Source of the DNA: a virus
Taxonomy: Duplodnaviria; Heunggongvirae; Uroviricota; Caudoviricetes
IMG/VR virus record: IMGVR_UViG_2558860170_000005
Length of the DNA stretch: 33,534 nucleotides
Strand: one strand, 5' to 3'
Shown here: positions 9,142-9,452 of the stretch, piece after piece
How the letters are laid out: each line of letters begins with the position of its first letter
Position numbering within the stretch: the first letter of the stretch is position 1
Position numbers and translations under genes: made by a program
The notes under the pieces: generated by a model
Seen by the model: the letters and a program-made list of their open reading frames with translations, nothing else
Told to the model about the DNA's origin: nothing
Databases searched by the model: none

Positions 9142-9216
9142 TGGAGCGGGCAGCGGGAATCGAACCCGCATCATCAGCTTGGAAGGCTGAGGTAATAGCC
9201 ATTATACGATGCCCGC
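9142..9216 (-). tRNA. tRNA-Gly (anticodon UCC)
   Basis: 75-nt cloverleaf GCGGGCA…TGCCCGC-T-CCA; anticodon loop CTTCCAA; T-loop GGTTCGATTCC. Confidence 0.85.
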
Positions 9217-9219
9217 ATA

Positions 9220-9295
9220 TGGTGCCGACTACCGGAATCGAACTGGTGACCTACTGATTACAAGTCAGTTGCTCTGCCTGCTGAGCTAAGTCGGC
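9220..9295 (-). tRNA. tRNA-Thr (anticodon UGU)
   Basis: 76 nt GCCGACTTAGCTCAG…; anticodon stem ACTGA/TCAGT, loop CTTGTAA; 3' ACCA. Confidence 0.8.
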
Positions 9296-9297
9296 GC

Positions 9298-9374
9298 TGG
9301 CCCACCACCGAGGACTCGAACCTCGCACCGTCAACTTAGAAGGTTGATGCTCTATCCGGATGAGCTAGTGGTGG
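9298..9374 (-). tRNA. tRNA-Arg (anticodon UCU)
   Basis: 77 nt; acceptor CCACCAC/GTGGTGG; anticodon stem TCAAC/GTTGA, loop CTTCTAA; T-arm CGAGG-TTCGAGT-CCTCG. Confidence 0.8.
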
Positions 9375-9375
9375 T

Positions 9376-9452
9376 TGGTGGCCCTTGCTGGACTTGAACC
9401 AGCGACCTGGCGATTATGAGTCGCTCGCTCTGACCAACTGAGCTAAAGGGCC
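9376..9452 (-). tRNA. tRNA with CAU anticodon (Ile2/Met type, ileX-like)
   Basis: 77 nt GGCCCTTTAGCTCAGTTGG…; anticodon loop CTCATAA; T-arm GCTGG-TTCAAGT-CCAGC. Confidence 0.8.

Follow-up and report, generated by a model that had tools for sequence, protein, structure and literature searches.

A compact four-tRNA array with a putative promoter of its own downstream of the Q-like gene in a lambda-like prophage

The virus record IMGVR_UViG_2558860170_000005, a stretch of 33,534 nucleotides that is referred to here as the window, carries four tightly packed tRNA genes at positions 9142-9452, behind a Q-like late antiterminator gene. A cluster of rare-codon tRNAs in such a place is textbook phage biology and has little weight alone. 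Since the work on Shiga toxin (Stx) phages it has been known that lambdoid phages may carry tRNA clusters between Q/tR' and the late genes, and clusters of this kind have been described for SfI, Sf6, ST64T and P21 (PMC3636060). The question raised by the present locus is whether its four genes form a working unit and what that unit is good for. We consider it probable that they constitute a self-contained tRNA operon, a piece of cargo lodged among the late control elements of a lambda-like prophage, and that this operon supplies minor tRNAs. The genes, their identities, the conservation of the promoter and the match to codon usage are observed. The array is very probably functional.

When the whole window was scanned with ARAGORN, exactly four tRNA genes were found, all of them within 9142-9452 and all on the minus strand. 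In order of transcription they are:

9376-9452, minus strand: predicted tRNA-Ile2 (CAU), ileZ-type (ARAGORN; Rfam RF00005, 70.5 bits)
9298-9374, minus strand: tRNA-Arg(UCU) on a phage-specific argN-type scaffold (ARAGORN; Rfam RF00005, 56.4 bits)
9220-9295, minus strand: tRNA-Thr(UGU), a copy of host thrU with U16C and U20C (ARAGORN; Rfam RF00005, 69.8 bits)
9142-9216, minus strand: tRNA-Gly(UCC), the same as host glyT (ARAGORN; Rfam RF00005, 64.9 bits)

All four are high-scoring, fully paired cloverleaves with an encoded CCA end. Their scores lie above the curated gathering score of RF00005 (29 bits) and their E-values range from 1e-13 to 9e-10 in a search of the whole window, so that chance is excluded. 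The original prediction, made by reading the sequence without database searches, had listed the anticodons CAU, Arg-UCU, Thr-UGU and Gly-UCC in transcription order and had proposed ARAGORN as a check on their folding; the program recovered the same four tRNAs at the expected coordinates. The location was exact, and it is to be added that the genes reside on the minus strand. The spacers, put at 1-3 nt, measure 1 nt (9375), 2 nt (9296-9297) and 3 nt (9217-9219).

ARAGORN labels the CAU gene as Met, from the anticodon alone. The tRNA is identical to Stx-phage ileZ at 74 of 77 positions and to K-12 ileX at 69 of 77, and only at 54 of 78 to the elongator metT. Its acceptor stem, GGCCCUU/AAGGGCC, contains C4-G69 and C5-G68, where metT has U4 and A5; from the TilS literature we take these to be the pairs by which TilS separates Ile2 from Met. 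Given the Ile2-type body, the two pairs and the fact that identical copies of the gene are labelled tRNA-Ile in RefSeq, we assign the CAU gene to tRNA-Ile2, a predicted reader of AUA after lysidine modification, and not to Met.

The Arg gene had been singled out for an unusual C1-G72 acceptor pair. The pair is real (acceptor stem CCACCAC/GUGGUGG, all stems Watson-Crick) but not peculiar to this copy, as it typifies the argN-type scaffold as a whole and occurs in more than 100 copies among the matches listed. With 64/77 identical positions to Stx argN, which also starts with C1-G72, and 58/79 to host argU, the gene belongs to the argN scaffold of Stx phages and is unrelated to argU. The D-loop AUCCGGAUA gives A20, the anticodon UCU provides C35 and U36, and the discriminator is G73. 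This agrees with the arginine identity set of Escherichia coli ArgRS, which we take to be A20, C35, U36 or G36, and A73 or G73, and the tRNA is a predicted ArgRS substrate. Within its scaffold family Arg(UCU) scores highest, at 56.4 bits; three other members reach 53.7, 44.4 and 43.0 bits, and odd-loop variants of the C1-G72 scaffold gave no match to RF00005 at all.

The second half of the array is of a different kind. The Gly(UCC) gene is identical to K-12 glyT (75/75), and the Thr(UGU) gene matches K-12 thrU at 74 of 76 positions, the sole two differences, U16C and U20C, both lying in the D-loop. In the host, thrU and glyT are 209 nt apart with tyrU between them, compared with 3 nt in the window, and the spacer TAT corresponds to 1 nt of the thrU 3' flank plus 2 nt of the glyT 5' flank. 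This would fit an origin by deletion from the host operon, although the spacer is too short as proof. None of the host neighbours tyrU, thrT, tufB and coaA is present around the array, and because tyrU, thrT and tufB are missing we regard the Thr and Gly genes as captured copies rather than the host operon itself. The original prediction had named exact identity to a chromosomal tRNA operon with host flanks as the finding that would speak against it; half of this was found, namely the identity of Gly and the near-identity of Thr, the other half (tyrU, thrT, tufB) was not. The array is a fusion of two modules, a phage pair of Ile2 and the C1-G72 scaffold, which is also present without Thr-Gly in Stx phages, and a host-derived Thr-Gly pair. 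It thus displays assembly in one place, an old phage pair joined to a near-exact host gene pair minus tyrU. The Thr-Gly fusion also creates a sigma-70-like match, TCGGCA-16-TATAAT (10/12; window 9201-9228, minus strand). We treat it as probably fortuitous and not as a promoter because its -10 element is the D-arm of glyT.

Upstream of the tRNA genes lie the following elements:

9642-10196, minus strand: Q-like late antiterminator gene, DUF1133 family, 184 aa (Pfam; also annotated in E. coli RMDEC332, L003)
9541-9570, minus strand: tR'-like intrinsic terminator, stem 9562-9558/9552-9548, loop UUUAU, U7 tract 9547-9541 (RNA fold of 9641-9453)
9462-9490, minus strand: putative dedicated array promoter, -35 TTGCAG (9490-9485), 17-nt spacer, -10 TATTAT (9467-9462)

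The array does not appear to depend only on transcription reading through tR', and in this the earlier reading of the locus is extended. The -10 element of the promoter at 9462-9490 is followed by the GC-rich stretch TCTGCCTCC, and the first tRNA begins with G1 10 nt downstream of the -10. The match TTTGCA-18-TATTAT, directly upstream of the first tRNA, was picked up by a consensus scan; two sites compared with 0.7 expected are not significant alone. Weight is added by conservation. We grouped 105 upstream regions into 13 lineages that differ at more than 8 of 76 positions, and the only conserved columns in their alignment are TTGCA, TAttaT exactly 17 nt further on and the GC-rich stretch leading into tRNA position 1. 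Both hexamers and the 17-nt spacing are kept in 11 of the 13 diverged lineages, including ileZ of Stx phages, while the letters of the spacer vary freely. In the Stx phages of enterohaemorrhagic E. coli Sakai, differential RNA sequencing places a primary transcription start site between tR' and the homologous tRNAs (PMC7547250). The conserved promoter and the start site in Sakai both suggest that the array is autonomous and not a mere passenger of the late transcript: it is predicted to have its own conserved sigma-70-type promoter and to be a unit that can in addition be transcribed by read-through from the late promoter.

The surroundings are those of a lambdoid late control region. A Q-like gene had been proposed before the array, and its product matches DUF1133 with 355.8 bits and Phage_antitermQ with 28.4 bits (cut-off 26). 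The tR'-like terminator, likewise proposed, was recovered as a hairpin with a U7 tract when 9641-9453 was folded; on the minus strand it reads GCCCGC-UUUAU-GCGGGU-UUUUUU at about 9570-9541, between the stop of the Q-like gene (9642) and the array. A simple terminator scan of 8900-9700 had returned no site, probably because the scanner extended the stem into the U tract. In related arrays the sequence of the terminator stem differs, while the hairpin and the T-run are kept. Conservation of the terminator region extends to Citrobacter braakii. About 70 nt between the Q-like stop and the terminator (window 9571-9645, minus strand) are almost invariant in comparison with Citrobacter braakii (L011), whereas identity falls to 81% in the Q gene region; this conserved piece presumably contains the late promoter, the Q-utilisation site and the short terminated RNA. 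No consensus match to the late promoter PR' was obtained in the segment from the Q stop (9642) to tR', and its hexamers were not placed. Over the terminator region, Rfam gave only Trp_leader (23.1 bits) and isrK (19.9 bits; 9542-9615), well below threshold and taken as noise.

From these elements a simple course of events may be proposed. Transcription would start at the sigma-70 promoter TTGCAG-17-TATTAT, some 2-4 nt before the first tRNA, a start that has been mapped only in homologous Stx phages. Upon induction, additional transcription would arrive from the late promoter via Q-mediated read-through of tR'. A single short precursor would carry tRNA-Ile2(CAU), tRNA-Arg(UCU), tRNA-Thr(UGU) and tRNA-Gly(UCC). 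With E. coli tRNA biology as a guide, a cut by RNase P at each 5' end would mature the downstream tRNA and free the upstream one, and because the spacers are only 1-3 nt long, RNase P cleavage would suffice to separate the tRNAs. RNase P processes some E. coli operons of closely spaced tRNAs in this manner. The trailers of 1-3 nt would be trimmed to the encoded CCA by 3' exonucleases, and host enzymes would modify and charge the tRNAs, with TilS forming lysidine on the CAU tRNA. The outcome would be more tRNA for AUA, AGA/AGG, ACA and GGA/GGG, from which a fitness benefit may be expected.

At the 3' end of the array we found one further element:

9010-9135, minus strand: conserved structured RNA after Gly, hairpin 1 at 9135-9090 and hairpin 2 at 9082-9010

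The 182 nt following the Gly gene fold into two strong hairpins (minimum free energy -61.4 kcal/mol, z = -4.1). Seven of 42 pairs are changed on both sides, and changes from A-U to G-U pair only in the tRNA-sense strand. The hairpins match no Rfam family. It is possible that this RNA serves as the 3' end or as a processing element of the operon; in other array lineages, ordinary terminators are located directly 3' of Gly.

Is there a demand for the four tRNAs? For comparison we used the prophage L001, which has an identical array (37 genes, 6,674 codons), and 42 K-12 core genes (14,748 codons). When the 61 codons are ordered by their phage/host ratio in L001, AGA, AGG, AUA, CGG, ACA and GGA occupy ranks 1 to 6, with GGA and ACA showing the largest absolute excess. 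The 20 open reading frames (ORFs) of the window that do not belong to insertion sequences (IS) give nearly the same picture: the top seven codons are AGG, AGA, AUA, CGG, CGA, ACA and GGA, and AGA, AUA, ACA and GGA take ranks 2, 3, 6 and 7. The chance of these four codons all falling into the top 6 or 7 is 3e-5 to 7e-5. Use of AUA, AGA/AGG, ACA and GGA/GGG is 2.3-5.5 times higher in phage or acquired genes than in host core genes. The array tRNAs serve five of the top seven codons in the window ORFs, leaving CGA and CGG unserved; these two are the codons of the UCG anticodon borne by the same scaffold in Stx phages. The match fits the standard view of codon compensation, and a codon-supply role for tRNAs downstream of Q has been proposed in the SfI paper (PMC3636060).

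Several points weigh against codon supply by a complete operon as the whole answer. A comparison of late phage genes with the host had been suggested from the outset, and the rare codons are indeed enriched; in L001, however, early genes show more of this enrichment than late ones, and the array is thus not matched to the late operon in particular. Rare E. coli codons are enriched in any AT-richer acquired DNA, and a codon match is therefore expected for any rare-codon tRNA and no proof of benefit. The phage/host ratio for AAA is only 1.12, yet sister arrays contain Lys(UUU) in the second slot; as AAA is not over-represented, there are members of the family that codon supply leaves unexplained. 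The host sample comprises only 42 K-12 genes. Finally, neither the terminator scan of 8900-9700 nor folding revealed a canonical terminator after Gly, and neither of the two hairpins is of that type.

The closest known relative is the ileZ-argN-argO cluster of 933W/Sakai-type Stx phages (compared: Stx2a_F349, AP012530). It shares the order of Q, late promoter/tR', tRNAs and late genes, a first gene for tRNA-Ile2 (74/77) and, after 1 nt, a C1-G72 scaffold (64/77). The promoters correspond as well, TTGCAA-17-TATTAT in Stx and TTGCAG-17-TATTAT in the window, the start site having been mapped in Sakai only. In contrast, the second slot bears UCU in the window and UCG in argN of Stx2a_F349, the third and fourth genes are Thr(UGU)-Gly(UCC) with no argO, and no toxin genes follow. 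Of the kinship to ileZ, argN and argO that had been suspected, the first two parts hold; argO shows no specific kinship (57/77 to the window Thr gene, 56/77 to host argU) and is absent as third gene. We also considered argO as a remoulded phage Thr(UGU), given similar D-arms and an inserted A20. This was rejected, since argO, 74% identical to Thr, is nearly as close to host argU and to T5 Lys (73% each).

A second type of cluster is the Asn(GUU)-Thr(UGU) pair of SfI, Sf6, P21, HK446 and P22-like Salmonella phages, whose members are 98-100% identical and of which two were located by sequence match:

739-894 of L138 (SfI), strand not given: Asn(GUU)-Thr(UGU) pair
35097-35252 of HK446, strand not given: Asn(GUU)-Thr(UGU) pair

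In SfI the pair occupies the same slot as the array in the window, between Q and the lysis genes, and likewise includes Thr(UGU). Its tRNAs are far diverged from those of the host (SfI Thr 54/78 to thrU, with G39-C40-G41), whereas Thr and Gly in the window are near-exact host copies. The clusters of T4 and T5 are also tightly packed phage tRNAs that supplement or replace host tRNAs, and the Lys, Thr and Asn tRNAs of T5 neutralise PARIS; they are, however, much larger and highly diverged sets in lytic phages, unlike four genes, two of them host copies, in a temperate phage. With the host thrU-tyrU-glyT-thrT-tufB operon the array shares Gly (= glyT) and Thr (74/76 to thrU); it differs by the lack of tyrU and its spacers (206 nt), of thrT and of tufB, by flanks made of prophage genes, and by U16C and U20C in Thr.

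The array family is widespread and mostly intact. Nine complete E. coli genomes have a perfect match (100% identity) to a 401-bp query that spans the promoter, the four tRNA genes and the downstream hairpins; a related array, with at least 80% of the query covered, is present in 585 of the 5,426 complete E. coli genomes (~11%). The Thr-Gly junction with its 3-nt spacer was found at three loci in one E. coli, three in one S. flexneri and one in C. braakii, and at no fewer than 120 loci in IMG/VR. Among the matches listed, 128 arrays contain this junction: 56 read Ile2-Lys(UUU)-Thr-Gly, 35 are of the window type Ile2-Arg(UCU)-Thr-Gly and 20 consist of Thr-Gly alone, and in 74 the Thr gene is identical to host thrU. 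Identical copies of the array are already annotated as tRNA-Ile/Arg/Thr/Gly in RefSeq, and our literature search found no paper on the Ile2-Arg(UCU)-Thr-Gly composition. One identical copy resides in L001, an apparently complete prophage whose flanks differ by about 2.6%; this contrast between array and flanks is not used as a sign of selection, as the differences cluster at a mosaic boundary.

In the sister arrays (L002 5199-5275 of E. coli S51; L006 2501-2576 of a PPompW phage; about 56 of the 128) the second slot has the loop CCUUUAA and is annotated as tRNA-Lys(UUU). It scores 44.4 bits and shows C16, C33, G39-U40-U41 and an A51-C63 mismatch, and it lacks the motif U39-C40-A41 of PARIS AriB. 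U33 is near-universal in tRNAs. Other copies of the second slot have odd loops (L046, L059 and L103), those of L046 and L059 falling below the tRNA threshold. E. coli RMDEC332 (L003 4040-4195) contains a decaying copy, in which Gly, annotated as tRNA-Val, carries C35A, A38G and a 3' acceptor-strand deletion, and in which the anticodon stem of Thr is broken (CAGU to CAUC). Such arrays can hence degenerate.

A purpose other than codon supply is conceivable for Thr(UGU) and Gly(UCC) and for Lys(UUU) of the sister arrays. They could replace host tRNAs destroyed by TOPRIM tRNases such as P2 OLD and PARIS AriB, with U16C and U20C lowering recognition by the nuclease, an explanation that we hold to be unlikely though deserving serious attention. 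The tRNAs depleted by OLD of P2, the classic abortive system against lambda, are Thr(UGU), Gly(UCC), fMet, Val(UAC) and Pro(UGG), and Thr(UGU) of the lambdoid phage HK446 restores plating of OLD-sensitive phages while over-expressed E. coli Thr(UGU) does not (bioRxiv 10.64898/2026.07.10.737580). AriB cuts E. coli Lys(UUU), Thr(UGU) and Asn(GUU) between C40 and A41; in tRNA-Lys, the only tRNA for which an effect of U16C was shown, cleavage is lost with U39A and significantly reduced with U16C (PMC12409363). The window contains the first two tRNAs in the list of OLD targets, one of which, Thr(UGU), is cut by AriB as well, and its Thr gene differs from thrU by nothing but U16C and U20C. The Lys of the sister arrays has C16, and G39-U40-U41 in place of U39-C40-A41. 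The HK446 Thr belongs to an Asn-Thr pair that is 99.4% identical to the SfI pair just downstream of Q, and because this Thr rescues and the pair nearly equals that of SfI in the same slot, a tRNA cassette of this kind already has an experimental counter-defence role.

Several observations on the array speak against such a role. Its Gly is 100% identical to glyT and thus cannot be nuclease-resistant. Its Thr keeps the host anticodon stem at the cleavage sites of AriB and OLD, with U39-C40-A41 and nucleotides 27-31 as in thrU, and extra E. coli Thr(UGU) failed against OLD (bioRxiv 10.64898/2026.07.10.737580). A host-identical Thr is present in the 74 of 128 arrays noted above. Few positions in tRNAs vary as freely as 16 and 20, so it is no surprise to find two neutral changes there, and with several tRNA-targeting systems known, overlap with one target set would arise by chance in several percent of cases. 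Codon supply and counter-defence are not exclusive, and defence nucleases may aim at just those scarce tRNAs on which phages most depend. Thr(UGU), Gly(UCC) and U16C align with the PARIS and OLD findings of 2025-2026 and bear on the question of near-host tRNA copies as counter-defence in temperate lambdoid phages. The SfI Asn(GUU)-Thr(UGU) pair comprises two of the three AriB targets, both without U39 (G39-C40-G41 in Thr, C39 in Asn). The OLD preprint mentions a single HK446 tRNA (bioRxiv 10.64898/2026.07.10.737580), and in the two HK446 records no tRNA features are annotated under the Asn-Thr match. Protection from the toxSAS FaRel2, which acts on tRNA-Gly and tRNA-Thr via acceptor-stem pairs, was considered and rejected, as phage copies with host acceptor stems would be equally targeted.

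Both purposes could also be combined in a kit whose Thr-Gly half is directed against the TOPRIM tRNases of rival elements, with Thr as a minimal escape allele of thrU and the second slot as an anticodon-switching platform (UCU, UCG, UUU) tuned by the dominant pressure; the sister Lys(UUU), without the PARIS motif, is built on the same scaffold. We put this forward tentatively and think it unlikely.

Compared with these functional explanations, it appears still more doubtful that the array is an inert passenger, serving nothing in an IS-ridden remnant and intact only because the time for decay has been too short. This explanation draws on the damaged state of the prophage. Downstream of the array the features are:

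6445-8959, strand not given: IS600 with a 3-bp target duplication CAC (BLAST against the uninterrupted L003 and IS copies; transposase domains)
~6893-8147, strand not given: IS911-like element of 1.25 kb inside IS600 (BLAST)
6115-6330, minus strand: P21-type holin (Pfam Phage_holin_2_1)
5618-6115, minus strand: lysozyme (Pfam Phage_lysozyme)
5154-5633, minus strand: Rz (Pfam Phage_lysis)

The array had been placed between the Q-like gene and the lysis cassette. Holin, lysozyme and Rz are indeed recognised downstream by Pfam, in a cassette (5154-6330) that is 97% identical to L003, but about 2.5 kb of nested IS DNA now intervene, as the IS600 starts 182 bp after Gly, parts the array from the holin gene and severs the late operon. 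The rest of the window is a defective Rac/lambdoid prophage remnant: the terminase large-subunit reading frame stops about 120 aa in, beside an IS600 copy, and those of the integrase and RecE are likewise cut short next to IS600 copies. The window further holds:

2266-3422, 15905-17061, 24909-26065, 27694-28850 and 31844-33000, strand not given: five further IS600 copies (BLAST)
1128-1825, 11473-12170 and 14989-15686, strand not given: three IS1-like pairs of 91-aa and 167-aa ORFs (ORF size only)
21237-22268, strand not given: IS-type DDE_3 transposase gene (transposase domain)

That arrays do decay elsewhere, as in RMDEC332, is a further point for an inert passenger. In the window, however, the promoter, the four genes and the downstream hairpins are intact, and the 401 bp are 100% identical to L001 despite the heavily damaged prophage around them. 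Since the array has its own putative promoter, its expression would not need the dead late operon. Such a load of IS elements is typical of Shigella or enteroinvasive E. coli and suggests that the genome is of this kind; an array intact with a promoter of its own in an IS-shredded prophage may go on providing a Shigella-like host, whose acquired genes are rich in those codons, with four minor tRNAs.

That the array is simply part of the host chromosomal thrU-tyrU-glyT-thrT-tufB operon and no phage cargo, as the matches of Gly (75/75) and Thr (74/76) might suggest, is as good as out of the question and already refuted by the flanks, given that tyrU, thrT, tufB and coaA are absent, that thrU and glyT are 3 instead of 209 nt apart, that the neighbours are Q-like and holin genes, and that the array is found in prophages at differing chromosomal sites with at most three per genome.

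None of the complete E. coli genomes matches the 8-kb neighbourhood of the array from end to end. Two genes precede the Q-like gene:

10193-10483, minus strand: YbcO, preceding the Q-like gene
10483-11082, minus strand: DUF1367, preceding YbcO

Elsewhere in the window, an isrK-like RNA (64.8 bits) and a C4 antisense RNA (79 bits) at 23172-23360 on the plus strand overlap the 5' part of an ORF with Rha/Ash domains (23121-23966), a set that resembles antirepressor immunity modules of the P1/Gifsy type. The RalA antitoxin RNA of the RalR system (207 bits) is located at 30533-30711 on the minus strand, and a sok RNA (118 bits) resides beside a hok-family gene at 12428-12602, also on the minus strand.

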